The notes: generated by a model from the sequence alone, not told the origin. A stretch of 34,315 nt of DNA from Holophagales bacterium UBA2201 (GCA_002327305.1 DCUZ01000019.1:47030-81344); one strand, 5' to 3'. Positions 10,694-34,315 are shown, numbered from the stretch's first letter. Numbers and translations are program-made.

Positions 10694-10726
10694 GAACTCG
10701 AAATTCGAAACCCGAAACTCGAAACT
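10694..10726 (+). repeat. GAAAC heptamer array (tcgaaat-tcgaaac-ccgaaac-tcgaaac)
   Basis: Tandem 7-mers, inverted relative to 10456-10483. Confidence 0.7.
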
Positions 10727-12722: not shown

Positions 12723-12845
12723 CGGCCGGAAAGCGGAAAGGCGGGAATGCCGGAAGGCTCCCCCGCCCCATGCGAGGCCGTTCGGCGTACGGCGTTCAGC
12801 GAAGCTGCCCCTGGGGGCAGGAGCGTACCCAGAAAGGAGTTGGGA

Positions 12846-13995: not shown

Positions 13996-14035
13996 GAACT
14001 CGAAACTTTAAACTCGAAACTCTAGACTTGTTTCT
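13996..14035 (+). repeat. GAAAC heptamer array (tcgaaac-tttaaac-tcgaaac-tctagac-ttgtttc)
   Basis: Lies 10 bp upstream of the C-tract-flanked promoter. Confidence 0.7.
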
Positions 14036-14044
14036 ATCCCCCCC

Positions 14045-14073
14045 TTGACACCCCCCCCGGGGGGGAATAAAAT
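14045..14073 (+). promoter_or_regulatory. consensus-like promoter cccccTTGACAcccccccc-N17-TAAAAT driving the Fe-S operon
   Basis: The -35 is embedded in poly-C tracts; the spacer is 17 bp. Confidence 0.5.
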
Positions 14074-14204
14074 GGACGGGAGAGGCCTTATTTACTTGAA
14101 ATGGTTAAACTTAACCCTGCCAGGGGCGTCCTCCCGGGGAAACCTGAGGCGAGGAGGGGGGAGGGGGGGCAGGAAGAGGAAAAATCCACTCGATCGGAAC
14201 CCTC

Positions 14205-17362: not shown

Positions 17363-17384
17363 TGGGGCGCGGCATGCAGCGCCC
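17363..17384 (+). terminator. near-palindrome ggggcgcggcatgcagcgcccc (same family as 10654)
   Basis: GCATGC-centred GC-rich inverted repeat after the gene end, followed by AT-rich sequence. Confidence 0.4.
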
Positions 17385-17497
17385 CTACTGGTTATTATAT
17401 CCATCTAACATTTATTTGCGCCCCTTTCCGTCAAACACCTTGAACCCGAGGCCCGTATTGTGATATGGTAAGCCGAATTTTATTTAAGGAGAGACCT

Positions 17498-17848
17498 ATG
17501 AAGAGAGCCACCGTGTTGTTCACTTTCCTGGCGTTCATCCTTGTCCTGGCCGGCTCCCTGGCGGCGGCCGACGCCCCGGCCGACATCAAACTCACGGCCA
17601 AGAACGGCGATGTCACGTTCCCCCACAAGGCCCACGCGGAGGCGCTGAAGATCGCCTGCGCCACCTGCCACCACACCACCAAGGAGGGCGAGGCGGTCCA
17701 GAAGTGCTCCGCCTGCCACGGCGTGGACGCCAAGGCCCCCAAGGCGCAGGACGCCTTCCACAAGCAGTGCCAGGGCTGCCACAAGGACGAGAACGCCAAA
17801 AACGCCAAGAAGGCGCCCGTCAAATGCACGGAGTGTCACAAGAAATAG
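17498..17848 (+). CDS. periplasmic tetraheme cytochrome c3 family protein
   Basis: Signal peptide plus four CxxCH motifs (CATCH, CSACH, CQGCH, CTECH) in 116 aa; RBS aaggagag. Confidence 0.85.
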   Translation: MKRATVLFTFLAFILVLAGSLAAADAPADIKLTAKNGDVTFPHKAHAEALKIACATCHHTTKEGEAVQKCSACHGVDAKAPKAQDAFHKQCQGCHKDENAKNAKKAPVKCTECHKK

Positions 17849-17922: not shown

Positions 17923-20900
17923 TCACTTCTGCGCCGGGATGAAGAAGGCGTCGTTGCTGGTGGTCCGATTGTCCACGACGGAAGCGTAGGCGTAGACGCT
18001 GCCGCCCGAGAGGACGGAGACCTCGCCCAGCGCCACCGCATGCGGCGCGGCAATGCCGAGGTCGCTGAAGATGTTGACCTGGAAATTGCCGTGGGCGGGG
18101 ACGGGGTAGGTCTTGAACCCCAGGACCGACCGGTTGGCGTCGTACAGCTTCACCTGCACCTGGGCGCCCTGGCCGGAAACCTCGGTGAACCCCACGTTGC
18201 TCCGGTAGTCGGCGGTGTTGGCCAGTTGGAGCAGAAGGCCCGTCTCGCCGGGGGCGATGAGGTCCGCGGCGGCCCCCCGGGCGGGGATGAACTGCCCGAA
18301 GGTCCCCAGCCCTGCCGTCGAGGTGTAGGTGCGGGAGGTGACGATCAACCCCTGGGATGACTGAAGGTGCAGGGCCCCCGAGGTGTTGCCCGTGACGGAG
18401 GGGAAGAGGGTGGTGAGAATGTCATCGCGGGAGACCAGCTCCCCCTGCCCGATCGTGAGATTGGCGGTGGCGGTGGCGCCGGCGGCCACGTAGGTGAGGG
18501 TGACCGCCTGGGAGGCGAACGGGTTGTAGAGGCGCAAATCGGTGCGCCAGTTGGACCCGTACCCCCCCTGCGTCCGGGCGGCGGCGGCCACCACCTGATG
18601 CGCCTGCCCCTGGACGTCGCCGGCGCGCTGGATGGGGATGAAGATGGGATCGGAGGAGATGTTGTCGGCGACGGAGGCGTAGGCGGCGAACACGGCCCCC
18701 GGCGTGGAAGAGGTCACGACCGCGTAGGCGTCGTCCACGGCGGCCGAAGTGAGGGCGTCCATGACATAGTTCTGCTGGTAGTGCTCGAAGGGGTTGAGGG
18801 TGCGCGACCAGTCCCCGATGTGCGACCCGTCCGCCCGGTGGAAGGAGAATTTGACCTCGACGAAACCGCTCCCCGCATTCACCACCCCCACGTTGGTCCG
18901 GAACCCGGCGTTTTTGGCCAGGTGCAGGAGGATCCCCTCCTCCCCGCTTTTGAGCAGGCGGGAGGAGAGGGTGGCGGGGATGAACTGCCCGTAGGTGCCC
19001 AGGACCCCGCGGTCGTTGTAGGTGCGGGAGGTGATCGCCAGGGGTTGGGTGGAGGTCAGCCACAGGGCCCCCGCCAGGTTGTTGAGGCGGAACATGCTCC
19101 CCACGATGTCCCCCAGCCGGACGAACCGGAACCCCGGCAGGATCACCTCGGACCCGGCGGCGGCGGCGTTGTCCTGCCCGCTGGGGAGGAAGTAGGCGTA
19201 GACCGAGATCTCTGCGCTTCGGGGGTTGTGGACCACCACGTCGGAGAGCCAGTTGGTGTTGTTGGCCCCCTGGGCCTTGGCCGCCGCCGGAAGAAGATAG
19301 GTGTAGGGCTGGGCGGTGGTCAGCGGCGGGACGATGCCGCGTCCGTAGACGATGACCTGCTTGGTGGCGGATGAGGTTCCGAAGGCATTGGAAACCGTCA
19401 GCGTGACGGGGAAGGTGCCGGAGAAAAGATAGGTGTGGACGGGGTTCTGCTCCATCGAGGTGGTCCCGTCACCGAAGTCCCAGGACCAGGCGGTGGGGAC
19501 GAGGGAGGAGGCGTCCACGAACTGAAGGCCGGTGCCGATCTCGGGGCGGCCGGCGAACCAGGCAAAATCGGCCACCGGCGGGGCGTTGAAACCGTAGATC
19601 CAGGCCACCCCCGCGGCGTCATCGGGGTGGGGCGTCCGCTTGTTGCTCGAGGGGCCCGATCCGGCGTAGCCGTACATCACCTTGTCCCGATCGTCGCCAT
19701 CCCCGTAGAGGTCGCGCAGGGTGAGCCAGTGGCCGGTCTCGTGGAGGACGATGGAATGGACGTCAAAGGCCCCGCTGGGCGTGGTTTCGGCGATGCTGTA
19801 GTTGAACTTGGTGTTGAGGACGAGGTCGGCCTCCACCATGTATCCCTGGGCATTGGACCAATAGGTGGCGTAGCCGAGGGTGTTTTCGTAGCCGGGCCCG
19901 AGGTCGGAGGCCATGATCTCGCTCTTTCCATTGTTGCGCAGGTCCCGATTCTCCGTGGTCCCGGCCTGGGTGAACACGATGTTGCCGTGCTGGCCCCAGG
20001 TCCCGGTGGAGGCCGCCACGGTGGCGGTCCAATCGGGGATATTACTTCCGAGGTAATAGGAGATCGTGGGGGGGGCGCCGTTCCATTTCATGCCGCCGTA
20101 GCCGAAGGAGACCTTGTAATCGTACCCCGGCGACTTGGCCCCGGCGCTGTTGGTCACCCAGACGGGACCGGTGGCGGCGGAGCCGGGATACCCGGCCACG
20201 CGCCCGATGGGCACCTGCACCCGGATGACATTGTCGTTCCATTCGGAGATGGTCGAGCCGGTGATGGTGGACTGCCCCTCGAAGGTGAACTGGACGCGGC
20301 TGCTGGTCCCCTTGGTGCCGAACCCCACGCCGCGGATGTAGGCCTCGGTGCCGGTGCCGGCGGAGGCCTTCTCCGGGTGCATCTCCACGATCATGGGGCC
20401 GGTGCCCGGCTGGTCCTCCGCGGGGGGCTCCATCTTCTTGGCGATGAGGGCCCACTCCTTGTTGGACGGATCCATGAAGTCGTCGGGAGCGGCCTGCCCC
20501 TCCCGGTAGGATTCGATGCGGAAATCGTATTCCTGGCGCGCGGAACCGTAGAGATTGAGGATCCGCGCGTCGGTGGAATCGTAGTTGGTGATGACATAGA
20601 GCGGGGTGGTATAAAGGTGGGACCAGGCGGTGGTCCCCGCCAGGCGCCAATAGACCTTGTCGAAGACGGTGATGGAGCCGCTCCCCCCCTTGACGTCGGC
20701 GTCCCACAGGAGGCGGCCGAACTGGATGTACCCGTCGCCGTCATAGTCCACCTCGTAGTCCCAGTTCGCCAAAACCAGATTGGAGGTCAGCGCCCGTCCC
20801 GGCGGGGCGGCGGCGTCCGCCGGCTTCTCGATCCGGGAAGCGTCCAACGGGGAGATGGCGCCCCCCGATTCGACGACGGGGCCGAGCCCCAGAAGGGTCC

Positions 20901-21503: not shown

Positions 21504-21534
21504 TTGTCAAATGGCCCCCGCTTTCCGTTACAAT
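21504..21534 (+). promoter_or_regulatory. candidate promoter TTGTCA-N19-TACAAT giving a leaderless or near-leaderless GT4 transcript
   Basis: The -10 ends about 10 nt before GTG 21544. Confidence 0.3.
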
Positions 21535-21543
21535 GGAGGGGCC

Positions 21544-22644
21544 GTGAAGCCCCTCTCCGTCCTTTTCGTCCTCGAATACTATCCCCCGCACATCGGCGGC
21601 GTGGAGACGATGTTCGCCGCCCTGGCGGGGGAACTGGCCCGTCGGGGGCACCGGGTCCGGGTCTTCACGGGGAGCGTCCCGGGGGCGCCGGACCGGGAGA
21701 CGGCCGGAGGGGTGGAGATCGTCCGCGTCCCCCTGGGCCCCTGGCGCCGCTTCCGGTTCACCTTTGGAATGACGCGGCGGCTGTCCCCCCTGGCCCGGGA
21801 GGCCGACCTGGTCCACGCCTCCACCTACTCGGGGACCTGGTCGGCCGTGCATGCGGCGCGGGCGGCGGGACGGCCGGCGGTCGTTTCGGTCCACGAGGTG
21901 TGGCTGGACCTCTGGAAGCGGGTCCCCTTCGTTCCGGCCCTCCAACGCTGGACCGCCCCGTGGCAGGAGCGGTTCCTCCTCCGCCTCCCCTACGACGCCT
22001 ATTCCGCCGTTTCGCGGGCGACGATGGAGCGCCTCCACCCCTTCTCCGGGGGCCGGCCGGTGTTCCATGTCCCCGCGCCGGTGGCCGTCCCGGAGGGGGT
22101 CCGCTGGTCGTCCCCCCCCCCTCCCTTCACCTTCCTGTATTTCGGCCGCCCGGGCCACTGGAGGGGGCTCGATCTGTTGCTGAAGGCCTTCGCCACACGG
22201 CGAGCGGGGGGGTCGGAAGCGCGGCTTGAGCTCATCCTCAGCCCTGAACCCCGGCGCGAGCGGGCCGCCCTGTTGTGCCTGGCGGAGGCGCTGGGGCTCG
22301 GGCCCGCCCTGGCGGTGCGGGAACCCCTTCCCCGCGAGGCCCTGTTCGACCGGCTGGCCTCGGCGCACGCGGCCGTCTTCCCTTCGTTGAGCGAGGGGTT
22401 CGGCCTGGCGGCGGCGGAGGCCTGCGCCCTCGGCGTCCCCGTCGTGGCCTCCGACGCCGGCTCCCTGCCGGAGGTGGTTTCGGGGCGGTGCCTCTTCTTC
22501 CCCGCGGGAGACGCGACGGGCCTGGTCCGCGCCCTGGAACGGGCCGAGCGGGGGGAGTGGGAGGAGCGGCCGCCGGTCCGCTTTCCCTTAAACGCCTCCG
22601 TCGAGGCCCTTCTGGCGATGTATCAAAGTATAATGAAGCCATGA
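21544..22644 (+). CDS. GT4 family glycosyltransferase (GT-B fold)
   Basis: N-terminal EYYPPHIGGVE and C-terminal PSLSEGFGLAAAEACALGVPVV (EX7E). An in-frame alternative ATG at 21511 lies inside the predicted promoter. Confidence 0.8.
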   Translation: MKPLSVLFVLEYYPPHIGGVETMFAALAGELARRGHRVRVFTGSVPGAPDRETAGGVEIVRVPLGPWRRFRFTFGMTRRLSPLAREADLVHASTYSGTWSAVHAARAAGRPAVVSVHEVWLDLWKRVPFVPALQRWTAPWQERFLLRLPYDAYSAVSRATMERLHPFSGGRPVFHVPAPVAVPEGVRWSSPPPPFTFLYFGRPGHWRGLDLLLKAFATRRAGGSEARLELILSPEPRRERAALLCLAEALGLGPALAVREPLPREALFDRLASAHAAVFPSLSEGFGLAAAEACALGVPVVASDAGSLPEVVSGRCLFFPAGDATGLVRALERAERGEWEERPPVRFPLNASVEALLAMYQSIMKP

Positions 22645-23429
22645 GACCCCCGACCGCCCTGCTCCTCCTCCTGCTGGCCGCCTCCCTGTCCGCCCAGGAC
22701 CCCGTGGACAACTGCGAGCGCCTCCGGACCGCCCGGGCCCTCGCCCCCCTCGCCGAAGAGGAGGAGGCCGCGGCGGGCCTCGTCGCCCGGCTGGTGGCGG
22801 ACGCCCTGCACGAGGCGCGCGGGCCCCTTCCCGACGGCACCTACCGGTGGGCCCGCCTGTCGGATAAGGCGGCCGTCACGGTCTCCAAAGGGGTGGAGGT
22901 GGACCGTAAGCAGCTGGAGTGGAAGATGAACGGGACGAACTGGTTCGCCCTCCGCCTCAAGTGCCCCAAGAAGAAGAACCTCTTCTGGGGCAACGCCCCG
23001 GTCATGCTGCGCTCGGTCACCCTCGACGACGGGCAAGGGGCGAGGGTCCTTCTGGCGGACCGCCACCTCGCGCGCGACGAGGAGTTGAAGATCCCCTTCG
23101 GGGCCATCGTGCCCCGCGCCTCCGTCGCCATCGTCTTCGAGCGATACCCCGATTCCGAGCGCGACCCGTACATCGCGGTCGAGGCGCTCCAGGCGGGGTT
23201 GTGGGACGATCCCTCCAATCCCCAGGCGGAGATGCTCAGGCGCCTGGTGGAACTCTCCGGCGCCCGGCCGGGCGGAGGGGATTACGCCGCCCGCCTCGAC
23301 CGCGCCATGGAGGGGTGCGTCCCGCCCGTGCGGCGCGAACTGGAGTACATTCTCTACCTCCTCAAGGGCAACCCGCGCGAGCAGGAGGAGGGACGGAAAC
23401 GGCTGGAGGAGCTCCTGAAGAAGATGTAG
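22641..23429 (+). CDS. secreted hypothetical protein translationally coupled to the glycosyltransferase
   Basis: ATGA overlap. Signal peptide MRPPTALLLLLLAASLSAQD; no recognisable domain. Confidence 0.6.
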   Translation: MRPPTALLLLLLAASLSAQDPVDNCERLRTARALAPLAEEEEAAAGLVARLVADALHEARGPLPDGTYRWARLSDKAAVTVSKGVEVDRKQLEWKMNGTNWFALRLKCPKKKNLFWGNAPVMLRSVTLDDGQGARVLLADRHLARDEELKIPFGAIVPRASVAIVFERYPDSERDPYIAVEALQAGLWDDPSNPQAEMLRRLVELSGARPGGGDYAARLDRAMEGCVPPVRRELEYILYLLKGNPREQEEGRKRLEELLKKM

Positions 23430-23440
23430 GTGCGGAGCGG

Positions 23441-23613
23441 GGTGGCTGATGGTTGAACGAAAATACCGCACCCCCGTCCCCGCTCCGAAATCATAAATCC
23501 GAAATCCGATATTCCATATCGAACGAAAATACCGCACCTTAAAAGGTGCGGCTACATCCCCCTACTTCAACGCTCCAACGGCGCGAGAACCGCGCACCCT
23601 GAAGGGTGCGGCC
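23441..23613. repeat. cluster of related GC-rich hairpins (REP-like) plus terminator
   Basis: gtgcggagcgggg ... ccccgctccg; two copies of gaacgaaaataccgcacc; hairpins ccgcacc-ttaaaa-ggtgcgg and ccgcgcaccc-tgaa-gggtgcggcc. Confidence 0.6.
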
Positions 23614-23731
23614 GCATTCCACCCTCCCAACGCTCCCCTGCGCCGCCCCGTATCGCAGGGTGTGACGACACACAACCCGGGATTGATGATGGATGTCACA
23701 AATCTTGAATGAACGAATTTTGGAGGAATGT

Positions 23732-24799
23732 ATGCGCACTATCATGATCCTTACCGTCGCCCTCTTCAGTACCATCGCGTTCGGCTACGAGCAGATCGTC
23801 CCCGTCGTGGCCAAGACCGGGGGCGCCTACGGCAGCCTATGGCAGTCCGACCTCACCCTCCTCAACGCCGGCAAGAAGGCGGTCGAGGTGACGCTCACCT
23901 TCCAGCCCTCCGGTCAAGCCGGGGGGGCGCAGGTCAAGACTGCGACGCTCCCCCCCGGTGCCGTCTTCGCCGAGTCCGATATCCTCGGCTGGTTCGGCGC
24001 GCAGGGGGCCGGCTTTCTCGCCCTCTCCTATCCCGACGAAGCCCGCACCGCCCTCGGCGTTTCAAGCCGCACCTACACCACCACCGAAGCCGGCACCTTC
24101 GGCCAGGCGGTCCCCGCCGTTCCCGCCGAGGCGGTGACCGCCGCCGGGGCCGAGCTCTTCCTGGTCCTTCCCGGCGGCTCCGCCGACGAGCGGTTCAATT
24201 TCGGCGTCACCACCCTCGGCGACGCGGCGATCGCCTGGCAGCTCCTGGCCCCCGACGGCGCCGTCATCGCGCAGGTGGACAAGACCTACGCCGGGCGCGT
24301 CCAGGAGCAGTACAACGGCGCCGAGGCCTTTTTCAGCGGCGGCGGCGGCCGTCTCGTCAAGGCCGTGCTGACCGAGGGCACGGCCATCGTCTACGGCTCC
24401 CGCGTGGACAACGGCACCAACGACGGGGTCTTCCTCCTCGCGCCGAAACTCCAGTCCAACCAGCCCCCCCTCTTCCTGGGCGTGGACACCACCTCCGACG
24501 GCACCCTCGACTACCGCGACGCCGACGGCGACGGCGTCCTCGACAACGCCATCCCCTTCTCCACCGGTTATCTGTTCAACTATCTGTTCACGATTGCCGC
24601 GCGCGATCCCGAGGGGGACCCCCTCACCTTCCGCCTCGTCAACCCGCCCGCCGGGATGATGCTGACCGACGAGCGCGCCGGGACGGTCTACTACGCCCCG
24701 TCCACGCAGGACGCCAACAAGACCCTTCAACTGAACGTGGAGATCACCGACGGCTTCGCCGTCACCCTCGCCAGGATCCCGATCCTCGTCACTCCCTGA
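23732..24799 (+). CDS. secreted protein carrying one copy of the ~200-aa uncharacterised domain plus a C-terminal Ig/cadherin-like region
   Basis: RBS tggagga; signal peptide. VAKTGGAYGSLWQSDLTLLNAG...SSRTYTTTEAGTFGQAVPAV...YGSRVDNGTNDGVFLLAP is colinear with the protease C-terminal repeats. Confidence 0.75.
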   Translation: MRTIMILTVALFSTIAFGYEQIVPVVAKTGGAYGSLWQSDLTLLNAGKKAVEVTLTFQPSGQAGGAQVKTATLPPGAVFAESDILGWFGAQGAGFLALSYPDEARTALGVSSRTYTTTEAGTFGQAVPAVPAEAVTAAGAELFLVLPGGSADERFNFGVTTLGDAAIAWQLLAPDGAVIAQVDKTYAGRVQEQYNGAEAFFSGGGGRLVKAVLTEGTAIVYGSRVDNGTNDGVFLLAPKLQSNQPPLFLGVDTTSDGTLDYRDADGDGVLDNAIPFSTGYLFNYLFTIAARDPEGDPLTFRLVNPPAGMMLTDERAGTVYYAPSTQDANKTLQLNVEITDGFAVTLARIPILVTP

Positions 24800-24856
24800 A
24801 TCCCCCGGGTCTCTCCCAACCTCCTTCGCCCCTCCCGGGGACGCCCCGCCGCCCGC

Positions 24857-25927
24857 TTACGGGCGCGGGGCCTTTTCGCCCATGTAGAGTTCGATTTCCG
24901 AGAGAAAATCTTCGACGATGTTTTCCAGGCCGAGGACCTTGTGGGGCCTGCCCTTCTTGAAGACCAGCGCCCGCCCCGCCCCGAAGGCCAGGCCGATCTC
25001 GGCCAGGCGCGCCTCTCCGGGGCCGTTGACCTCGCACCCCATCACGGCCACGTGGACGTCCCACTTCCTTTTCCGGATGGCCTTTTCCACCGAAGTCACT
25101 ATAGGCAGGATGGGAACGCGGGTGCGGCCGCAGGTGGGGCACGACACCACCACCGCCCCGCCGGGGAGCATCCCCAGCGCCCGGAGGATCTCCCGACCCG
25201 CCCTCACCTCCGCCTCGGGCCTCCCCGTCAGGGAGACGCGGAGGGTGTCGCCGATCCCCTCGAACAGGAGCATCCCGATGCCGATGGCCGACTTCACCGT
25301 CCCCGCATAGGCGGTCCCCGCCTCGGTGACGCCGAGATGCAGGGGGTAGTCGGTCTTCTTCGCCAGGAGGCGGTAGGCCGCCACGGTGGTGGGGATGTCG
25401 GAGGCCTTGACGGAGATCTTGATGTCGCGGAAATTCAGATCCTCGAGGATCGCGGCGTGGCCGAGGGCCGACTCCACCAGCGCGCCGGCCGTGGGCCAGC
25501 CGTGCTTTCTCAGCAGTTCCTTTTCCAGCGACCCCGCGTTGACCCCGATGCGGATGGGGACCCTGCGCGCCCGCGCCGCCTCGACCACCCGTTCCACGCG
25601 GGCGCGGGCGCCGATGTTGCCGGGGTTGATGCGCAGGGCGTGGACCCCGGCGTCCAGCGACGCCAGGGCGAGGCGGTGGTCGAAGTGGATGTCGGCCACG
25701 ACGGGGAGGGGCGAACCCTTCACGATGGCCCCCAGCGCTTCGGCGGCCTCGGCGTCGGGGACGGCGAGGCGGACGATGTCGCACCCCGCGCGGGCGGCGG
25801 AACGGACCTCCCGCAAGGTGGTGGCCGCGTCTCGGGTGTCGCTCTTGGTCATGGTCTGGACGCTCACGGGGGCGCCACCGCCCACAGCCACGGGGCCGAT
25901 GAGGAGCTTCCGGGTCTTGCGCCTCAT
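24857..25927 (-). CDS. ispG: 4-hydroxy-3-methylbut-2-enyl diphosphate synthase (IspG/GcpE)
   Basis: Full-length similarity, C-terminal CPTCGR 4Fe-4S motif. ATGA overlap with the rseP stop. Confidence 0.9.
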   Translation of the reverse strand: MRRKTRKLLIGPVAVGGGAPVSVQTMTKSDTRDAATTLREVRSAARAGCDIVRLAVPDAEAAEALGAIVKGSPLPVVADIHFDHRLALASLDAGVHALRINPGNIGARARVERVVEAARARRVPIRIGVNAGSLEKELLRKHGWPTAGALVESALGHAAILEDLNFRDIKISVKASDIPTTVAAYRLLAKKTDYPLHLGVTEAGTAYAGTVKSAIGIGMLLFEGIGDTLRVSLTGRPEAEVRAGREILRALGMLPGGAVVVSCPTCGRTRVPILPIVTSVEKAIRKRKWDVHVAVMGCEVNGPGEARLAEIGLAFGAGRALVFKKGRPHKVLGLENIVEDFLSEIELYMGEKAPRP

Positions 25928-27246
25928 AGGAGCTTGAGGATGTCGAAGACGAGGACCACGGCGAAGAGCGTCATCAGGAAGGCGAAGCCGGCCTGGATGA
26001 GGCGATACTTGAAGGCGGCCTTGAAGTCGCGCCGCATCAACCCCTCCAGCGTCAGGATGAACATGTGCCCCCCGTCGAGCAGGGGGATGGGGAGGAGGTT
26101 GAAGATGGCCAGTTGGAGGGAGATGAGCCCCATCAGGTGGAGGAAGTTGGCCGGCCCGGTGCGGATGAACTCGCCCGAGATGCGGGCCATGTCCAGGGGG
26201 CCGGAGACCTGCCGGATGGAGCCCTTGCCCTGCAGGAGTTTCTTCAGAAAACGGTAGGAGAGGGTGGCGCCGTCGAGGCAGGCGATGCCCCCCCGGCGGA
26301 ACGATTCCACGAACCCGTAGCGCTTCAGGGCCGTCCCCTCGCCGGCGGCGTCGAAGAGGACCCCCATCTGTCCGACCCCGTCCACCGACGCCAGGGTCAC
26401 CTCGGTCCGGACCCGCTCCGCCCCCCGCTCCACCTCCAGCGCGAGCGTGGCGCCGGGATTGGCGCGGGCGATCTCCACCACCGCGGCGTAGTGATGAATG
26501 GGCGCGCCGTCCACGGCGGCGATGATGTCGCCCGCTTGGAGGCCCGCCGCCTGGGCCGGGGTGCCGGGGTTGACCTGCTGGATGCGCGGGCGCGCCTCGG
26601 GGTAGACGCCGATGTCGCCCACCCGGTACTTCCCCTTCTTTTCGATCTGCACCGGGAGCCGGAGGCCCTCCCCGCCGCGGAGCACCTCGAAGGTGACCCG
26701 CTCCCCCCCGGAAAGGAGGACGGTCTCGGAGAAGGCCTGCCAATCGGGGAGGGCCTTCCCCTCCACGCCGGTGATCCGGTCTCCGGGGAGGATCCCCGCC
26801 CGCCCGGCGGGCCCTTCGGCGTCCACGAACCCCACCACCACCGGCTTCTCCAGGAGCGCCGGCACCTGGATGCCGACCATGAAGGAGGCGCTCGTGAAGA
26901 GAAGGGCGGCGACGAGGTTGGCGGCGGAGCCGCCCATGAAGATGAAAAACCGCTTCCACCGGGGCCCCGCCATCGAAGGGGGCGGGGTGTCCCCCTCGCG
27001 GGCGATGAGGTCGGACTCGTCCAGCCCCAGCCCCTTGACCTTGACGTACCCCCCCAGGGGGATCCACGAGACCCGGTAGTCGGTCTCCTGCCGGCGGAAC
27101 CCCCACGCCCGGGGCCCCAGGCCGATGGAGAAGACCTCCACGGGAAAGCGGAACGCCTTGGCCAGGAGGAAGTGCCCCGCCTCGTGGAGGGTCACCAGGA
27201 TGCCCAGGACGATGAGAAAACCGAGGATGCTCTGCAGAACGGCCAT
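25924..27246 (-). CDS. rseP: RIP site-2 metalloprotease RseP (M50) with PDZ domains
   Basis: HEAGH zinc motif in TM1, PDZ repeats, C-terminal LDGGH. Confidence 0.9.
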   Translation of the reverse strand: MAVLQSILGFLIVLGILVTLHEAGHFLLAKAFRFPVEVFSIGLGPRAWGFRRQETDYRVSWIPLGGYVKVKGLGLDESDLIAREGDTPPPSMAGPRWKRFFIFMGGSAANLVAALLFTSASFMVGIQVPALLEKPVVVGFVDAEGPAGRAGILPGDRITGVEGKALPDWQAFSETVLLSGGERVTFEVLRGGEGLRLPVQIEKKGKYRVGDIGVYPEARPRIQQVNPGTPAQAAGLQAGDIIAAVDGAPIHHYAAVVEIARANPGATLALEVERGAERVRTEVTLASVDGVGQMGVLFDAAGEGTALKRYGFVESFRRGGIACLDGATLSYRFLKKLLQGKGSIRQVSGPLDMARISGEFIRTGPANFLHLMGLISLQLAIFNLLPIPLLDGGHMFILTLEGLMRRDFKAAFKYRLIQAGFAFLMTLFAVVLVFDILKLL

Positions 27247-27249
27247 GGA

Positions 27250-28425
27250 TTATTCAACCTTTCGGACGGCACCGTTTAGTTCGGCCCGGGCCAGGCGCCG
27301 GGCCCGCCCGGCCGCGTCGAGGAGGGCCGGCAAGTCGGGCATGGGGGGATCGTCCCACCGCTCGAGGGCGTTTTGCACCGCTTCCGCGATGCCCAAAAAC
27401 CCGACCCGCCCCCGCAGGAACTCCCCCACGGCCAGTTCGTTGGCCAGGGAGAAGACCATGGGGTACCCTCCCCCGCGGCGCAGGGCTTCGTAGCCCAGCG
27501 GGAGGAGGGGGAACTTCTTCCCATCCACCGGGAGGAACGAAAGCGTCATCCCCGGGAACCGGACCCGCCCGAAGGGGGAGGGGAGGCGGCGGGGCCAGGA
27601 AAGGGCGTACTGGATGGGAAACTTCATGTCGTTGGGGCTCACCTGGGCCAGGACCGAACCGTCGCGGTACTGGACCATCGAATGGATCTGGCTCTGGGGA
27701 TGGACCACCACCTCGATGGCCTGGGCCGGAAAGCCGAAGAGGAAGTGGGCCTCGATCACCTCCAGGGCCTTGTTCCCCAGCGTGGCGGAGTCGATGGTGA
27801 TCTTGGGCCCCATGGACCAGGTGGGGTGCCGGAGGGCCTCCTCCACCGTGATGGAGGCGAATTCCGACCGTTTCTTTTTCAGGAACGGCCCGCCGGAGGC
27901 GGTGAGGATCAGTTTCTCCACCTCGCTGCGCTTCCCCGATCGAAGGCCCTGGTGGAGGGCGCAATGCTCACTGTCGATGGGAAGGATGCGGCGGCCGCGG
28001 CGGCGGGCCTCCCGGTTGAACAGCGCCCCGGCCATCACCATGGCCTCCTTGTTCGCCAGGGCCAGGTCCTTGCCCGACTCCAGGCAGCGGAACGCGGGGA
28101 CCAGCCCCGCCTCCCCCACGATGGCCGCCACCGCCATCTCGGCCTCGGTCTCGGCCGCCAGATCGGCGATGGCGGCGTCCCCGGCATAGACCCTGGCGCG
28201 GGGGAGGGCCCGTTTCACCTCCCTGGCGGCCCCGGCATCGGCCACCCCGACGCGCCGAACGCCGAACCGGCGCGCCTGCTCGATCAGCCGCTCGGTGTTC
28301 CTGCCCGCCACGAGGGCGGCGATGGAAAACTCGTCCCGGAAGTGATGGACCACCTCCAGGGTGGAGACGCCGATGGAGCCGGTGGAGCCGAGGAGGATGA
28401 TCCTCTTCACGGGAGCGACTTCCAC
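27250..28425 (-). CDS. dxr: 1-deoxy-D-xylulose 5-phosphate reductoisomerase (Dxr)
   Basis: LGSTGSIG NADPH motif and DSEH. GTG start; an alternative in-frame GTG at 28410 gives VKRIILLGSTG. Confidence 0.9.
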   Translation of the reverse strand: MEVAPVKRIILLGSTGSIGVSTLEVVHHFRDEFSIAALVAGRNTERLIEQARRFGVRRVGVADAGAAREVKRALPRARVYAGDAAIADLAAETEAEMAVAAIVGEAGLVPAFRCLESGKDLALANKEAMVMAGALFNREARRRGRRILPIDSEHCALHQGLRSGKRSEVEKLILTASGGPFLKKKRSEFASITVEEALRHPTWSMGPKITIDSATLGNKALEVIEAHFLFGFPAQAIEVVVHPQSQIHSMVQYRDGSVLAQVSPNDMKFPIQYALSWPRRLPSPFGRVRFPGMTLSFLPVDGKKFPLLPLGYEALRRGGGYPMVFSLANELAVGEFLRGRVGFLGIAEAVQNALERWDDPPMPDLPALLDAAGRARRLARAELNGAVRKVE

Positions 28426-28575
28426 GCGTAGAGGGCCAGGCCGGGATGGTTTCTTTGTAGGGGCACCGCATGCTGTGCCCTTGCGGTGGTAAGAGCGAGC
28501 CGCCCTCTCCCGATCAGTCTATGAAAGAGGCGCTTCACGGCAAGGACTTCCAGGCGTAGAGGGCCAGCGCGGCCC
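28420..28575. repeat. 28-bp direct repeat of the cdsA 3' terminus flanking a 100-bp insert between cdsA and dxr
   Basis: acttccaggcgtagagggccagcgcggcc (28548-28575) versus acttccacgcgtagagggccaggccggg (28420-28447). The 28407..29120 ORF reuses the CdsA C-terminus YAWKSLP. Confidence 0.7.
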
Positions 28576-29317
28576 AAAGCAAGCTGTCGGTCCGGTCCCA
28601 GAACCCGCCGTGGCCGGGGAAGAAGGCGCCGCTGTCCTTCACCTCCAGGTCCCGCTTCAACAGCGACTGGATGAGGTCGCCCCAGAAGCAGGCCAGCCCC
28701 ATCGCCAGGCCGGCCGCGGCGTTCGGCCAGGAGAGGCCGAAGAAACCGAGGGTGACGGCGACGGCGGCCAGGTGGAGGGCCACCGTCCCCTCCCAGGTCT
28801 TCTTGGGGCTCACGGCCGGGGCCACCGGGTGCCGGCCCATCGTCTTGCCGGCGTAATAGGCCGTGCTGTCGGAGACCCAGACGACGGCCAGAAGATAGAG
28901 GATCAGCTTGATCCCCTCTTCGGGGCCGAAATGGGTCCGCAGGGCGGCGACAGCCCCTCCGGGGAGGCCGAAGAGGAGGGGCAGGGCCGTGGCGTAGTAG
29001 AGGCGAAAAGCCCCCCCCTGGAGGGGTTGAGGTATCGCCAGCACCGCCATGGCCGGGAGGAAGAGGGCCGCGCACAGGACCGGGAGGGCGGGGAGGCGGA
29101 AAAACAGCCACGCCCCCCACAGGGCCGTCAGGGCCATGACCAGGGCGAAGAGGAGGGGGTTGGTGCGGGAAAGGTAGAGTTTCGCGGCCTCGGCGGCGGC
29201 GAGAAGGACCACCAGGGCGGCGAGGACCTGAAACCCCGCGGGGGGAAGGAGGAAAAAGATCCCCGCGATCAGGGCGATGCCGACGGCGGCCGTGGCTTCG
29301 CGCCTAACCGAGGCCAC
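28535..29317 (-). CDS. cdsA: phosphatidate cytidylyltransferase (CdsA)
   Basis: Polytopic membrane protein with the CdsA C-terminal signature SDSTAYYAGK...FPGHGGFWDRTDS. GTG start with RBS GGAGG. Confidence 0.85.
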   Translation of the reverse strand: MASVRREATAAVGIALIAGIFFLLPPAGFQVLAALVVLLAAAEAAKLYLSRTNPLLFALVMALTALWGAWLFFRLPALPVLCAALFLPAMAVLAIPQPLQGGAFRLYYATALPLLFGLPGGAVAALRTHFGPEEGIKLILYLLAVVWVSDSTAYYAGKTMGRHPVAPAVSPKKTWEGTVALHLAAVAVTLGFFGLSWPNAAAGLAMGLACFWGDLIQSLLKRDLEVKDSGAFFPGHGGFWDRTDSLLWAALALYAWKSLP

Positions 29318-30005
29318 CGAACCTCCGCTCCCGCCCCGCGTAGTCCTCCAGGGCCGCGTTCAGGTGCCCGGCCCGGAAGTCGGGCCAGTGGACGGGGGTG
29401 ATGTGCAGTTCGGCGTAGGCCAACTGCCAGAGGAAGAAGTTGCTGACGCGCATCTCGCCGCTGGTGCGGATGAGCAGGTCGGGGTCGGGGAGGGAGGGGT
29501 CGTAGAACCGGGCCTGGAGCGCCGCCTCGTCCACCGCTCCGGCCCCTTCGTCCAGGAGGCGCTGCATGGCGTCCAGGATCTCCGTCCGTCCGGAGTAGTT
29601 CAGCGCGAGCGTCAGATAGAGGCCGGTGTTGTTAGCCGTTTCGGCGATGGTCTGCTTCAATTTGGCCTGGACGGCGGGATGGAGGTCCCCCAGGCGACCG
29701 ATGGCGTGGAAGGAGACGTTGTGGGCCATCATGGTGGGGAGTTCCTGCTCCATGTAGAGGTTCAACAGCCCCATGAGGGCGTCCACCTCCTCCTTGGGCC
29801 GCTTCCAGTTCTCGGTGGAGAAGGCGAAGAGGGTGAGGTAGCCGATGCCCCGCTCGGCGCACGCCGTCACCACGGCCCTCACCGACTCGATCCCCGCCCG
29901 GTGCCCCTCGATGCGGGGCAGGCCCCGCCCCTTGGCCCAGCGGCCGTTGCCGTCCATGATCACGGCGATGTGGCGGGGAAGTTTCGCGTTGGCGGGTTGA
30001 GGCAT
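29304..30005 (-). CDS. uppS: undecaprenyl diphosphate synthase (UppS, cis-prenyltransferase)
   Basis: HIAVIMDGNGRWA ... RTSGEMRVSNFFLWQLAYAEL. Start ATG 30005; the 3' end overlaps the cdsA start by 14 nt. Confidence 0.9.
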   Translation of the reverse strand: MPQPANAKLPRHIAVIMDGNGRWAKGRGLPRIEGHRAGIESVRAVVTACAERGIGYLTLFAFSTENWKRPKEEVDALMGLLNLYMEQELPTMMAHNVSFHAIGRLGDLHPAVQAKLKQTIAETANNTGLYLTLALNYSGRTEILDAMQRLLDEGAGAVDEAALQARFYDPSLPDPDLLIRTSGEMRVSNFFLWQLAYAELHITPVHWPDFRAGHLNAALEDYAGRERRFGGLG

Positions 30006-30049
30006 CCGCCTATTGTATATGAACCCCCGGTTTGGCTCAAGGGGCGGGG

Positions 30050-30080
30050 ACTTTGAACCTGAAACCTGGAACTTGAAACT
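30050..30080 (+). repeat. GAAAC heptamer array (ctgaaac-ctggaac-ttgaaac)
   Basis: Same repeat family as 13996 and 10694; lies 34 bp upstream of a C-tract-flanked -35. Confidence 0.65.
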
Positions 30081-30114
30081 GGGCGGGAGGTAGCGCGGAA
30101 TATCCCCCCCCGCC

Positions 30115-30146
30115 TTGACACGCCCCCCCGTCTGCGTTACTATAAT
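30115..30146 (+). promoter_or_regulatory. consensus promoter cccccccccgccTTGACAcgccccccc ... TACTATAAT upstream of the flotillin gene
   Basis: -35 TTGACA in a poly-C context; -10 TACTAT (17 bp) or TATAAT (20 bp). Confidence 0.5.
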
Positions 30147-30251
30147 TATTGAGAAAATATTCACAACACAGGCCTCGGGTCGGACCCGCTTTTCCCCCCG
30201 GCGGGCTGGCGTGAATTTTTTCCGTTCGATCGACAACAACAGGAGGTCGTC

Positions 30252-31643
30252 ATGTTGACTTGGGTCATTATCATCCTGGCCGCCGTAGCGGTCGTCGCCA
30301 TTCTCATCGCCTTCCTCACCAAGCAGTATAAGAAGGTCGCCCCCAACCAGGTGCTCGTCGTCTCCGGCGGGGCGAAATACACCCTCACCGGCCCCGACGG
30401 CGCCACCAAGCAGGTGGGATACCGCCTCCGCGTGGGTGGCGGCGCCTTCATCAACCCCTTCACCGAGAAGGCCGAGACGATGACCCTCGAGGTCATCTCT
30501 GTGACGATCAAGACCCCCGAAGTGCTCTCCGGCGAGGGGGTCCCGCTGGTGGCCGAGGCGACCGCCCAGGTGCGCATCGACACCGCCGACTACCCGCTGG
30601 CCCTGGCCGTGGAGCAGTTCCTTGGCTCCGGCGCCGAGGGGATCCGCCAGGTCTCCGAGACCATCCTCGAGGGGGCCGTCCGCGCCGTCATCGGCCAGAT
30701 GAAGGTGGAGGAGGTCTACAAGGACCGCATGGGGTTCGCCGAGCGCGTCGGGGACATGGTGGAGGACGACTTCGCCCGCATGGGCCTCCAGATGGTCTCC
30801 TTCGCCCTCAAGGACGTCTCCGACACCCAGGGCTACCTCGACGCCCTGGCCAAGCCCAAGATCGCCGCGGTGAAGCTGGCCGCCCAGGTGGCGCAGGCCG
30901 AGGCCGACCGCGACGCCGCCATCCAGACCGCCGAGGCCCGCAAGCAGGCCGAGATCGCCCGCCTGGCCGCCGAGGCCGTCATCGCCGGCAAGTCGTGGGA
31001 GAACGAGGGGAAGAAGGCCGATTCACAGGTGGCCGTCAACACCAAGAAGGCCCACGCCGACATGTCCTACGAACTGGAGCGCAACAAGATCGCCCAGGCG
31101 CTGAAAAAGGAGGAGCACGCGGTCAAGATGATGGACAAGGACAACGCCATCAAGCTCGAGGAGCTCGAGGTGGTGCGCCGCCAGAAGGAATTGGAGTCCT
31201 CCGTCATCAAGCCGGCCGACGCCCGCAAGTACCAGATCCAGGCCGAGGCCGAGGCCGAGTCGTTCCGCCTCTCCGCCGAGGCCAAGGGGAAGGCCGAAGC
31301 CAAACGGGTGCAGGCCGAGGTGGACGCCGCCTCGGTCAAGCAGATGGGGACGGCCGAGGCCTCCGCCATCGCCGAGAAGGGCAAGGCCTACGCGCAGTAC
31401 AGCCAGGCCGCCGTCACCAAGATGATGGTGGACATGATGCCCGAGATGGCCAAGGCCGTGGCCGAGCCCCTCTCCCGCGTGGAGAAGGTGGTCCTCATCG
31501 GCAGCGACGGCAAGACCGGCGCCGGCAAGCTCACGGGGCAGGTGGCCGAGGTGATGGCCCAGATCCCCGAGGTGGTGGAAGCGGTCTCCGGCATCGACCT
31601 CAAGAAGATCCTGAAGGAAAAATTCTCCGGCGGCAAGGAATAG
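30252..31643 (+). CDS. flotillin / SPFH-domain membrane scaffold protein
   Basis: N-terminal TM helix, SPFH domain, long Ala/Glu/Lys-rich coiled-coil C-terminus. RBS AGGAGG. Confidence 0.85.
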   Translation: MLTWVIIILAAVAVVAILIAFLTKQYKKVAPNQVLVVSGGAKYTLTGPDGATKQVGYRLRVGGGAFINPFTEKAETMTLEVISVTIKTPEVLSGEGVPLVAEATAQVRIDTADYPLALAVEQFLGSGAEGIRQVSETILEGAVRAVIGQMKVEEVYKDRMGFAERVGDMVEDDFARMGLQMVSFALKDVSDTQGYLDALAKPKIAAVKLAAQVAQAEADRDAAIQTAEARKQAEIARLAAEAVIAGKSWENEGKKADSQVAVNTKKAHADMSYELERNKIAQALKKEEHAVKMMDKDNAIKLEELEVVRRQKELESSVIKPADARKYQIQAEAEAESFRLSAEAKGKAEAKRVQAEVDAASVKQMGTAEASAIAEKGKAYAQYSQAAVTKMMVDMMPEMAKAVAEPLSRVEKVVLIGSDGKTGAGKLTGQVAEVMAQIPEVVEAVSGIDLKKILKEKFSGGKE

Positions 31644-31667
31644 CGGTCCGCCGGGCCGAGGCGTCCC

Positions 31668-34013
31668 ATGACCATTTCTGAACGAGCGAACCAGATCGCG
31701 GCCTCGCCGACGCTGCGCATCGCGGCCAAGGCCAAGGCCATGCAGGCCGAGGGGATCGACCTGGTCGATTTCTCCATCGGCGAGCCCGACTTCCCCACTC
31801 CCGCCGCAGTCAAGGCCGCGGGCGCGCGCGCCATCGACACCAACTTCACCAAGTACACCGCCAACGAGGGGATCCCCGACCTGCGTCAGGCCATCTGCGA
31901 CCGCATCCGCGAGGACTACGGCGTCCAGTACCAGCCGGGGGAGATCCTCGTCTCCTGCGGGGCCAAGCATTCCCTCTCCCTGATCATGCAGGCCATCCTC
32001 AACCCCGGGCAGGAGGTGATCATCCCCGCCCCCTACTGGGTCTCCTACACGGAAATGGTGCGCCTGGCCGGGGGGGTCCCCGTGATCGTGCAGGCCAAGG
32101 AGGAGAACGGGTTCAAGCTGACGGCGGAACAGCTGAAGGCGGCCATCACCGCCAACACCAAGGCCGTCCTCCTCAACTCCCCCTCCAACCCCACCGGGGC
32201 CGTCTACTCCCGCGGCGAACTGGAGGCCCTGGCCCGGGTCGTCGTGGCCGAGGGGATCCTCTGCATCGCCGACGAAATCTACGACAAATTGCTTTTCGAC
32301 GACTTCAAGTACACTTCGTTCCCCTCCCTGGGGCCGGAGGTCAAGAAGCGCACCCTCCTGGTGAACGGCGTCTCAAAGGCCTACGCCATGCCCGGATGGC
32401 GCATCGGTTATACCGCCGGCGACGCTGCCATTATCGCCGCCATGGGGAAGGTGCAAAGCCAGACTACCTCCAACGCCGCCTCCATCTCCCAGAAGGCGGC
32501 CCTCGAGGCCTTCGCCGGGCCCCAGCACGAGGTGTCGAGGATGACGGCCGAGTACCAGCGCCGCCGCAACTATGTCCTCAACCGCCTCGAGTCCATCCCC
32601 AACATCCACTGCGTCAAGCCCGACGGCGCCTTCTACGCCTTCCCCAACATCGAGGCCTATTACGAGAAGGAGTTCGACGGTACCGTCATCCGCAACTCCT
32701 ACGGCATGGCCTACTACCTCCTGCGCCATGCCAACGTGGCCATCGTCCCCGGCGACGCTTTCGGGGCCCCCGCCAACATGCGCATCTCCTACGCCACCTC
32801 CATGGAAAACCTGGAGAAGGGGATGAGCCGCTTAATAGATGCCTTCGCGCGGCTCAAAACCCCGAAGAAAGTGCGGCGCACGGCCCTGCAGAACGCCGTG
32901 ACCAAGGTGAAAAAGCAGGTCCCCGTGGACGCCCGTGTCGCCCCTGACCGGCGCGACGCCCTGGCCGGCGAGGCGCAGAGCCAGTTGACCCACGACGCCT
33001 ACTACGAGTGGAACGCCAACATCAACGGCGTCGTCGTGCAACTGCGCACCAACGTCCCGCACCTCTACGACTTCTGGATGGAGAACTGGTACCCCGCGGA
33101 GCTCGAGGCGGGGATCGAGCCCCACGGCCTCATTTACGCCGTGGACGGCCTCACGGGCCGGGAGCCCCACGCCTTCTACTGCTCCGAGACCAAGACCGGC
33201 TTCCTCTTCAACGCCGACCACTACGGCTCCCTCCGCTCGCTGGCCCTCGGGCTGGTGACCGACGTCGGGGAGCGCCTCTTCGACGTCCACGGCGTCCGCG
33301 GCCTCTCCCTCGACATCGAGGGGACCGGCGCCGTCTTCGTGGGCCCGGCGGGGACCAAGAAGACCGAGATCGCCTTCGGCCTCCTGGCCCAGCCCGGCGT
33401 GGCCCTCCACAGCGCCGACTACCTCCTGGTCCGCTACGGCGGGGGGTTCGCCGCCGCCGACAACCCGGAGCGGAAGGCCTACCTCCCCACCCGCGTGGTG
33501 GAGGCGTTCCCGCCGCTGGCCAAGCTGATCGACCGCTCGCGGTGCGAAAACGTCGTCACCGCCAAGGAGGACTGCCGCCACGCCGAGTGCCTCCTGGCTG
33601 AGGACTGCCGCCTCGACAAGGGGTCGCCCTTCTGCTTCAAGGCCGCGGGCAAGTCCCACGCCCTGCTCGACCCCTACTGGCTGGGCGGGATGCGCAAGCA
33701 CGTCAAGCGCATCGACGTGCGCTTCGTCTTCCTCCTCAAGAACGACCCGCTGGGGTTCCCCACACAGGTGCTCGACGCCGAGGAGGCCGTGCGCCACCTC
33801 GAGCTCGGGCAGGCCTACGGCTCGGGGACCGTCAAGAACCAGCCCTTCTACAACCCCCACTGGCTCACCGACACCTCCGAGCGCGCCGAACTGCAGAAGC
33901 GCTTCTGGCGCCGCCTCCTCAAGGGGGCCAAGGCGGTGGTCCTCAACACCGCGGGGATGACGGCCGAGGAAGCCCAGGGCAAGGTCCTGGAGATCGTCAG
34001 CAAGGGAGCGTAG
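31668..34013 (+). CDS. aspartate aminotransferase (residues ~1-400) fused to a C-terminal ~380-aa HprK-like P-loop domain with a cysteine cluster
   Basis: N-terminal half has the PLP lysine motif SKAYAMPGWRIGY. C-terminal half has VHGVRGLSLDIEGTGAVFVGPAGTKKTEIAFGLLAQPGVALHSADYLLV, which tracks the HprK P-loop (G.SG.GKSE...LV.DD), followed by C-x9-C-x4-C-x5-C-x9-C. Confidence 0.8.
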   Translation: MTISERANQIAASPTLRIAAKAKAMQAEGIDLVDFSIGEPDFPTPAAVKAAGARAIDTNFTKYTANEGIPDLRQAICDRIREDYGVQYQPGEILVSCGAKHSLSLIMQAILNPGQEVIIPAPYWVSYTEMVRLAGGVPVIVQAKEENGFKLTAEQLKAAITANTKAVLLNSPSNPTGAVYSRGELEALARVVVAEGILCIADEIYDKLLFDDFKYTSFPSLGPEVKKRTLLVNGVSKAYAMPGWRIGYTAGDAAIIAAMGKVQSQTTSNAASISQKAALEAFAGPQHEVSRMTAEYQRRRNYVLNRLESIPNIHCVKPDGAFYAFPNIEAYYEKEFDGTVIRNSYGMAYYLLRHANVAIVPGDAFGAPANMRISYATSMENLEKGMSRLIDAFARLKTPKKVRRTALQNAVTKVKKQVPVDARVAPDRRDALAGEAQSQLTHDAYYEWNANINGVVVQLRTNVPHLYDFWMENWYPAELEAGIEPHGLIYAVDGLTGREPHAFYCSETKTGFLFNADHYGSLRSLALGLVTDVGERLFDVHGVRGLSLDIEGTGAVFVGPAGTKKTEIAFGLLAQPGVALHSADYLLVRYGGGFAAADNPERKAYLPTRVVEAFPPLAKLIDRSRCENVVTAKEDCRHAECLLAEDCRLDKGSPFCFKAAGKSHALLDPYWLGGMRKHVKRIDVRFVFLLKNDPLGFPTQVLDAEEAVRHLELGQAYGSGTVKNQPFYNPHWLTDTSERAELQKRFWRRLLKGAKAVVLNTAGMTAEEAQGKVLEIVSKGA

Positions 34014-34056
34014 CGTGAGAGAAAATGCCCACAGCAATCGTCCTGTGTTTATTCTG

Positions 34057-34140
34057 TCCGGCTTTCCGGCTTTCCCGCGTTCCCGCGTTCCCGCTTTCCC
34101 GCCTTCCAGCCTTCTAGCCTTCCAGCCTTCTAGCCTTCCC
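34057..34140 (+). repeat. pyrimidine-rich tandem heptamer array (YTTCC core) in the leader of the downstream gene
   Basis: ccggctt-tccggct-ttcccgc-gttcccg-cgttccc-gctttcc-cgccttc-cagcctt-ctagcct-tccagcc-ttctagc-cttcccg. Confidence 0.75.
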
Positions 34141-34150
34141 GAGGTGACCC

Positions 34151-34315
34151 ATGGCCGGTGATATTTTCAACTTGGAAGCCTACAAGCAATTCGTCGAGGC
34201 CCTGGGCCCGGCCCTGCAAGGTCCCAACATCCGCCACGTGGACCAGGACTGGCTGGAACCGCGGGCGCGGGAGTTCGGGACCCGGACCAAGTACGGCTCC
34301 TACGGCTGGCGCTCC
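34151..34315 (+). CDS. 5' fragment of a hypothetical protein; continues past the window end
   Basis: ATG 34151 (MAGDIFNLEAYKQFVEALGP...), open to the window end; preceded by the heptamer array. Confidence 0.4.
   Translation, partial: MAGDIFNLEAYKQFVEALGPALQGPNIRHVDQDWLEPRAREFGTRTKYGSYGWRS

Follow-up and report, generated by a model that had tools for sequence, protein, structure and literature searches.

An 8-nt tandem array before a PEPCK-like gene of a Holophagales bacterium, probably a lineage-specific simple-sequence repeat in array-rich intergenic DNA

We analyzed a stretch of 34,315 nt from Holophagales bacterium UBA2201 (GCA_002327305.1, DCUZ01000019.1:47030-81344), hereafter the window, whose GC content is 67%. 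Exact matches to it were found in oil-sands tailings and other metagenomes, and in the MAG GCA_002424725.1. Near the 3′ end of the window two plus-strand genes are separated by a spacer of 137 nt, running from the stop codon of an aminotransferase fusion gene (TAG 34011-34013) to the ATG of a PEPCK-like gene. The features of this junction are:

31668-34013, plus strand: upstream gene, 781 aa; N-terminal half aspartate-aminotransferase-like, C-terminal half (~390 aa) without Pfam match
34014-34056, plus strand: non-repetitive 5′ part of the spacer, with a weak hairpin of 5 bp (34030-34047) and then TTTATTCTGT
34057-34139, plus strand: array H, the main feature, ten 8-nt units and one degenerate unit
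34140-34153, plus strand: SD-like GAGGTGA (34141-34147) and ATG (34151) of the PEPCK-like gene
34151 to beyond the end of the window, plus strand: PEPCK-like gene, 610 aa, complete at L001:12484-14316

The C-terminal half of the 781-aa fusion contains a conserved QPFYNPH motif. The downstream protein is a divergent ATP-type PEPCK-like protein; it scores 271 bits against NCBIfam NF006821, which is below the cutoff, and PF01293 is precomputed for its homologues.

Tandem repeats were called by TRF (Tandem Repeats Finder) and unit periodicity was examined by autocorrelation. A previous sequence-only reading had placed a tandem array at 34057-34140, and TRF confirms it, reporting 34057-34141 with a score of 93 in a period-24 reading and 34064-34139 with period 8, 9.5 copies and 86% matches; its period-8 readings have 9.5-10.5 copies and 86-90% matches. 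The sequence-only reading described 12 units with a strict 7-nt period, but the autocorrelation is much higher at lag 8 (0.87) than at lag 7 (0.38), and ten units plus the degenerate one are counted. TTCY occurs ten times at exact 8-nt spacing, from 34064 to 34136. In register, the units are GGCTTTCC twice, CGCGTTCC twice, CGCTTTCC, CGCCTTCC, and the pair AGCCTTCT AGCCTTCC twice, preceded by the degenerate unit TTCTGTCC at 34052-34059. The YTTCC core proposed earlier is roughly right, the invariant columns of the GCYTTCC-type unit being G, C, -, T, T, C. Units fall into blocks, as adjacent identical pairs and as a 16-nt higher-order duplication, a pattern that fits stepwise duplication by slippage. 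Pyrimidines make up 78% of the array, with C at 47% and G at 17%, and its 83 nt contain 29 YC dinucleotides. The closeness of the array to ATG 34151 also holds, with a gap of 11 nt from 34139 instead of 10, and the GAGGTGA lies inside this gap.

In 100 dinucleotide-preserving shuffles of the window the highest score was 67, against 93 for array H, and period-7/8 arrays averaged 0.18, against nine observed. The array is longer than chance allows, and the earlier argument that it is not chance low complexity is borne out. Its sequence is identical in six assemblies (JGI, ENA, NCBI) from five samples, and an assembly artefact was therefore rejected. One further contig, L006 (1-1787, against window 30602-31667), is ~13% divergent in the Band_7 gene and identical from the aminotransferase through the array. 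It was rejected as an informative 95.6% strain, its differences all lying in the Band_7 gene, and is probably a chimeric assembly or a recent recombinant between related strains.

An in-frame TGA at 34145-34147, 3 nt before the PEPCK-like ATG, excludes an N-terminal extension of the protein through array H. Only ORFs of 30-48 aa, made of repeat translation, cross the array, and a coding role for it was rejected. A search for sigma-70-like promoters found none in 34014-34150 and none on either strand in 33800-34315, so that neither an own promoter for the PEPCK-like gene nor one for an antisense RNA was found on either strand. The array had been taken for part of a leader; it lies instead in an intercistronic spacer, and lacking a sigma-70-like promoter it does not belong with transcription-factor heptads or iterons. 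RNA of the spacer folds no better than shuffles (z-score -0.29), and the whole window has zero Rfam matches at the gathering threshold; on these two results a structured RNA at array H was rejected. No other copies of the 43-nt flank (34014-34056) were found in the loci compared and there is no inverted repeat around the array; a MITE/REP origin and a copied locus were accordingly rejected.

The aminotransferase and PEPCK-like genes are adjacent, with short spacers, in most relatives checked (Aminicenantes, Ignavibacteria, Calditrichota and others). At species level the nearest relative is L007, an uncultured Holophagales MAG whose upstream gene product is 93% identical in amino acids. It is syntenic with window 21524-34315 at 75-90% nucleotide identity, so its junction is the orthologous site. 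That junction reads ...GCGTGAccATGG (fuller stretch GGGGCGTGAccATGG): only 2 nt separate stop from start, and neither spacer nor array is present. Nor was an array found at the junction in L112/L113 (93% PEPCK identity), L091 (83%), L114 (77%) or eleven more distant loci. Among relatives with 57-93% PEPCK identity the junction spacers are short or array-free, and a TTCC array was found there in none of the other relatives checked. Since they are absent from the junction in relatives, the 137-nt spacer and array H are read as a lineage-specific insertion, and the array, absent from the closest of them, as a recent simple-sequence expansion. On this reading the two genes abutted ancestrally and were probably translationally coupled.

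The sole relative with arrays at this junction is an Ignavibacteria MAG (L024), itself array-rich, whose units are unrelated to those of array H. GTGAATC/GTGGAAG is repeated 13 times directly after the aminotransferase stop (L024:12328-12414), and AATCCGA/AATTCGA units end 18 nt before the PEPCK-like ATG (L024:12780-12811), with a small ORF between the two arrays. Words of these arrays also occur in the window (23484, 10695). The L024 arrays invaded this junction independently.

We enumerated period-7/8 arrays in 48 kb of this genome, made up of the window, 6.6 kb upstream (L115) and 7.1 kb downstream (L001), and all our genome-level statements on arrays rest on these ~48 kb. TRF finds nine in the window, at 6818, 8536, 10452, 10695, 12725, 13997, 23484, 30056 and 34057. 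There are 15 in the 48 kb (about 30 per 100 kb), all of them in the 10% that is non-coding, and a further 3-unit run at L001:14334 lies beyond these 15. Counting intergenic regions no shorter than 40 nt, 12 of 24 have an array, and periods 7 and 8 dominate the histogram of repeat periods, where array H is scored under period 24. The arrays discussed here, beside array H, are:

6818-6848, plus strand: array A, AGGCTGA-type units of period 7, rich in purines on the sense strand; fills the 42-nt spacer from a 137-aa ORF to a CHAD gene and supplies an SD-like AAGGA
8533-8625, plus strand: array B, the sister of array H, period 7, YGTTCYT x7 followed by irregular CCTTC-type units
10452-10482, plus strand: array C, GTTTCGA x4.4, 22 nt past the stop codon of a 130-aa gene on the plus strand
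10695-10726, plus strand: array C′, AACTCGA x4.6, 8 nt after the stop of a minus-strand PPK2 gene
12715-12758, plus strand: array D, units GCCGGAAA, GCGGAAA, GGCGGGAAT and GCCGGAAG, H-type units in reverse complement; begins at the stop codon of RidA and lies 88 nt before the following plus-strand gene
13997-14028, plus strand: array E, AACTCGA/AACTTTA x4.6, just upstream of the C-tract-flanked TTGACA promoter-like site of a cysteine desulfurase/NifU operon
23484-23509, plus strand: array F, TCCGAAA x3.7, in an intergenic region of 302 nt together with REP-like hairpins
30056-30079, plus strand: array G, AACCTGA x3.4, 5′ of the promoter-like site of the Band_7 gene
L001:18110-18153: H-type array, GCYTTCCC x5.4, between two minus-strand genes

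Arrays number 26 per 100 kb in the window, whereas the 80 other loci used for comparison, 1.2 Mb in total, have 2.7 per 100 kb. Two relatives, L109 and L111, reach 53 and 48 per 100 kb; L007 has none in 15 kb, and more distant Acidobacteria have 0-5 per 100 kb. The arrays occupy several kinds of context. Those at 6818, 12715 and 34057 are in operon spacers, and the one at 8533 is in a promoter-proximal leader; two more (13997, 30056) come shortly before C-tract-flanked TTGACA promoter-like sites, and convergent 3′ ends hold arrays at 10452/10695 and L001:17580/17620. The coding-strand restriction proposed for these arrays is contradicted by the H-type units, which are reversed relative to transcription at 12715-12758 and L001:18110-18153. 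Enumeration in the 48 kb found no bias toward leaders or toward one strand, largely the outcome that the sequence-only reading had itself named as contrary to its proposal; in this sample no rule limits TTCC-type arrays to leaders or to the coding strand.

Several other elements of these intergenic regions were seen. The two promoter-like sites (14038-14075 and 30103-30146) have C-runs flanking the -35, as CCCCCCC-TTGACA-CCCCCCCC; the one at 30103-30146 is kept almost base for base in L007 and its surroundings diverge. Of array G itself, L007 has only a degenerate remnant next to this nearly fully conserved promoter-like sequence. A third TTGACAC lies at 7913, upstream of MarR. REP-like elements, made of GTAG followed by a GC-rich palindrome on one strand (e.g., the reverse complement of GGGCGCAGCATGCTGCGCCCCTAC), lie at 10655-10678, 17364-17388, 23533-23556 and ~28457, at L001:15790-15815 and 18000-18027, and at L111:6038-6055, often 5-45 nt from a heptamer array. 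The segment between arrays C and C′ has no further copies in the loci compared, except for the REP-like palindrome. Arrays D and E flank a beta-propeller-like gene (12846-13886) with a GC content of 52-57%, against ~67% in its neighbors, and this gene was possibly acquired horizontally.

We consider it probable that array H is a lineage-specific long simple-sequence repeat and not a conserved dedicated leader regulator. This is favored by the mixed contexts of the arrays and the occurrence of TTCC-type units in both orientations, by an array density ~10x background with all arrays in non-coding DNA, by the independent filling of the same junction with different heptamers in L024, and by the lack of a sigma-70-like promoter, an RNA structure or an Rfam family at the spacer. 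The 8-nt units would have arisen and grown by replication slippage or unequal exchange within a spacer newly acquired between two genes that ancestrally abutted and were probably translationally coupled. Array H would then be one case of a wider trait, the presence of 7-8-nt arrays with a GAA/TTC core in about half of the intergenic regions of the 48 kb. Some observations speak against this explanation. GAA/TTC in 14 of the 15 arrays is not what slippage from random seeds alone predicts; certain words recur between sites and between relatives; L109 and L111 keep the position, strand and pyrimidine richness of array B; and copy number does not vary across near-identical assemblies.

The last of these points concerns seven or more near-identical assemblies, across which no copy-number variation of 7/8-nt arrays was found; the arrays are thus not visibly slipping at present. 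The sole length polymorphism among these assemblies is an 18-nt in-frame repeat at 6413-6468 (CCGTCCGCAAGGCCCAGC x3.1, in the 137-aa ORF), of which L115 has one extra unit (143 aa). Between species, array content turns over at fixed sites, as seen by comparing the window, L109 and L111: L109 has CAGGCGC x4.6 at the spot orthologous to array A, L111 has GTTTCGA units at the site orthologous to array C, and one junction holds 19 heptamers from stop codon to ATG in L109 and only 4-5 in L111. In L109 (2228-2362) the whole 131-nt spacer at this junction consists of 19 consecutive heptamers, YGYGAAA grading into CCTGGAA, that run from a methyltransferase stop to 3 nt before a LysE start, without a recognizable SD.

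The shared core of the arrays bears on a different reading, that they are platforms for a protein binding GAA/TTC at 7-8-nt phasing in a clade-wide network. Such a protein would be a single-strand nucleic-acid binder or a DNA binder, array H a recently recruited site, and the network comparable to that hypothesized for TAACTGA repeats and cyanobacterial heptamers. GAA/TTC is found in the cyclic unit of 14/15 arrays, far above the expectation from letter-shuffled units (mean 3.6, maximum 11 in 2000 trials), and these arrays form two sub-families, a GAAAC-type and a GGAAGGC-type. The words AACTCGA and AACCTGA recur at several sites and in L109/L111, and in similar form in the Ignavibacteria MAG. 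This recurrence suggests constraint or a sequence-specific process; it could also reflect common descent of the arrays together with a bias in slippage.

Orientation is regular as well. GTTTC(G/A)A-sense arrays lie 8-25 nt after stop codons in 6/6 cases, in the sense of the preceding gene:

10452-10482 and 10695-10726, window
L001:15859-15891 and 17580-17604
L111:5302-5329 and 6066-6089

As GTTTC sense follows each stop, convergent intergenic regions come to hold inverted array pairs; array C′ is inverted relative to C, so that both appear as GTTTCGA when read in the direction of the gene that they follow. The arrays at 13997 and 30056 read GAAAC in the direction of their promoter-like sites. 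These regularities speak for a binding platform, but the numbers are small, there is no candidate protein, phasing of 7-8 bp is off the helical repeat and awkward for binding of duplex DNA, and L007 does without arrays in 15 kb despite having the same genes. We regard this reading as unlikely. Core, words and orientation have parallels in the TAACTGA repeats described by MacGregor and in the heptamers reported from Nostoc; they do not rescue array H as a conserved leader regulator.

The proposal of a dedicated cis-regulatory leader, in which TTCC-sense arrays before an SD would form an RNA family controlling translation or transcript fate, draws in part on array B. Array B has an autocorrelation of 0.74 at period 7 but loses regularity in its second half. 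Upstream of it is a promoter-like site, TTTGCA-16-TATACT (8487-8514), and downstream the SD GGAGG (8632-8636) of a gene for a B12-binding radical-SAM protein (ATG 8643); the array is identical in five sequences (the window and four other assemblies). L109 and L111 have radical-SAM proteins 77% and 76% identical to that of the window, keep the MarR-radical-SAM synteny and a conserved promoter/operator block, and have between this block and the SD a pyrimidine-rich period-7 array of CGTCTCG/GTCTCAC units; position, strand and pyrimidine richness are retained and the units differ. An AT-rich block (TATAGTTTACATATATACAGTATATATAC in the relatives) overlaps the MarR/radical-SAM promoter-like site (8487-8530; L109:3880-3925; L111:2235-2280), includes the palindromes GTATAC and TGTACA, and probably serves as the operator of MarR.

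Arrays H and B both end 11-17 nt before a start codon, each next to an SD, and in the MFE fold of the array B leader CCUCC pairs with the GGAGG SD. A leader element might therefore work by transient pairing of anti-SD-like CCUUCC/CCUCC with the SD, or by S1 recruitment, and for Beggiatoaceae and Nostoc a role in regulating translation has been suggested for heptamer repeats at start codons. The two arrays had been described as having the same architecture, both in 5′ leaders. Likeness in composition and position stands, as does the placement near a start codon and SD, and B does follow a promoter-like site; the periods differ (8 in H, 7 in B), H has no sigma-70-like promoter upstream and its status as a leader falls. 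Array H is, moreover, missing at the orthologous junction in all close relatives, and H-type units occur in GGAA sense at 12715 and L001:18110. Fold energies are indistinguishable from those of shuffles for the array B leader (z-score -0.58) as for the spacer of H, and given also the Rfam result neither belongs to a known class of cis-regulatory RNA. The downstream genes, for a radical-SAM B12-binding enzyme and a PEPCK-like protein, have no function evidently in common. A family of arrays with a TTCC/GGAA core is upheld, and the dedicated leader element is not; we judge the leader reading quite improbable.

Structural DNA offers another alternative. On this view the (C3N5)4 run at 34074-34100 would fold, as a G-quadruplex of the template strand or an i-motif of the coding strand, and modulate transcription through the operon. 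A canonical motif of four G3N5 units is present on the minus strand there, and the similar array at L001:18110-18153 has five such runs. The motif in array H is not distinctive, however, because there are sixteen in the 34-kb, 67% GC window, and the 3′ half of array H and array B lack C3 runs; this idea is very unlikely to hold. As for a phase-variation (contingency) locus switching the downstream gene by changes in copy number, a short-unit tandem array by a start codon is a classical substrate for slipped-strand mispairing, but we find this reading scarcely credible for a repeat that is identical in six assemblies from five samples (array B in five sequences), lies neither between a -35 and a -10 nor in a reading frame, has imperfect units that lower slippage rates, and precedes a gene of central metabolism and not of surface or host interaction, in a locus whose sole length polymorphism among the assemblies compared is the 18-nt coding repeat.

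Returning to array H as a lineage-specific simple-sequence repeat, the consequences for the operon would be as follows. The spacer would uncouple the cistrons: with the start 137 nt from the upstream stop, the PEPCK-like gene must initiate on its own SD, GAGGTGA. The array would also put an unstructured C-rich, G-poor tract immediately 5′ of this SD. Tracts of this kind could provide a platform for S1 or standby binding, or a place for Rho to load; it is by function that rut and standby sites are defined, and they are not tandem arrays. A rut site calls for roughly 70-80 nt or more of untranslated, unstructured RNA rich in C and poor in G. By its sequence array H resembles rut and S1-standby sites, with ~80 nt that are untranslated, predicted to be unstructured (z -0.29), 47% C and 17% G, 5′ of the SD. 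It could act as a ribosome standby/S1 platform or as a Rho-loading (rut-like) polarity site, and on the best reading any such regulatory effect is secondary.

Short-unit arrays have been known since the cyanobacterial heptamer repeats called STRR, and to our knowledge they have had no functional explanation since. Simple-sequence repeats with units of 5-11 nt, heptamers being commonest, are sporadically abundant in prokaryotes and have been attributed to polymerase slippage (Mrazek, Guo and Shah, 2007, as summarized in PMC4679880). As far as that summary describes these long repeats, array H is like them in its head-to-tail short units and in a length beyond chance, and its absence from the junction in L007 and other relatives shows the turnover of a simple repeat; the arrays here are likewise non-coding and sporadic among lineages. 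The units of array H are 8 nt, where heptamers are commonest in the summarized class.

Closer in placement are the TAACTGA heptamer direct repeats found in intergenic DNA of marine Beggiatoaceae, Cyanobacteria and Bacteroidetes (MacGregor, 2015, PMC4679880), for which S1, Csp and CsrA have been proposed as binders. Like the arrays here they are tandem repeats of short units that often lie only a few nt from a start codon; in both cases the phylogeny is patchy, unrelated phyla have similar words, and the genes downstream have no function in common. Array H shares the intergenic position before a start codon, and such arrays are abundant in the 48 kb. In Beggiatoaceae, one dominant heptamer occurs in 2-6 copies and often replaces the SD, whereas the arrays here have many different units, 3-19 copies and both orientations. 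Arrays H and B retain a canonical SD downstream and differ in unit sequence and length, the unit of H being an 8-nt GCYTTCC-type and not the heptamer of the TAACTGA or STRR families.

In Nostoc PCC 7120, deletion of TTTTGAA/TTCAAAA repeats altered reporter activity both in Nostoc and in E. coli (bioRxiv 10.1101/2022.06.06.494920). These heptamers too are contiguous units near promoters or start codons, with GAA/TTC in the unit; the Nostoc and STRR heptamers come from another phylum and have other units, and the arrays here are known from sequence alone. Known regulators bind the TTTTGAT heptads of the Vibrio cholerae ctxAB promoter and the SARP heptamers, repeats placed upstream of a -35; array H shares with them tandem short units close to a gene, but has no promoter downstream and lies inside a transcription unit.

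Array H by itself shows a recent repeat expansion splitting a tightly coupled two-gene operon, and matters little alone. The wider trait is that this Holophagales-like lineage and its relatives L109 and L111 pack their intergenic DNA with 7-8-nt arrays at ~10x background, with some array words common to a different phylum and a core trinucleotide shared. We give a rather small chance to the idea that the 7-8-nt arrays of the clade, array H included, are not neutral microsatellites and are sites of a sequence-specific system recognizing the GAA/TTC core, which could be a single-strand RNA/DNA-binding protein or a dedicated repeat-generating activity. If true, the heptamer arrays of Ignavibacteria, Beggiatoaceae and Cyanobacteria would have a mechanism in common, and GTTTC after stops, GAAAC before promoters and TTCC before SDs would label where transcripts end and start across the genome. 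With its many arrays in clear operon contexts, this high-GC anaerobe is a new test system for telling neutral slippage from a regulatory layer.
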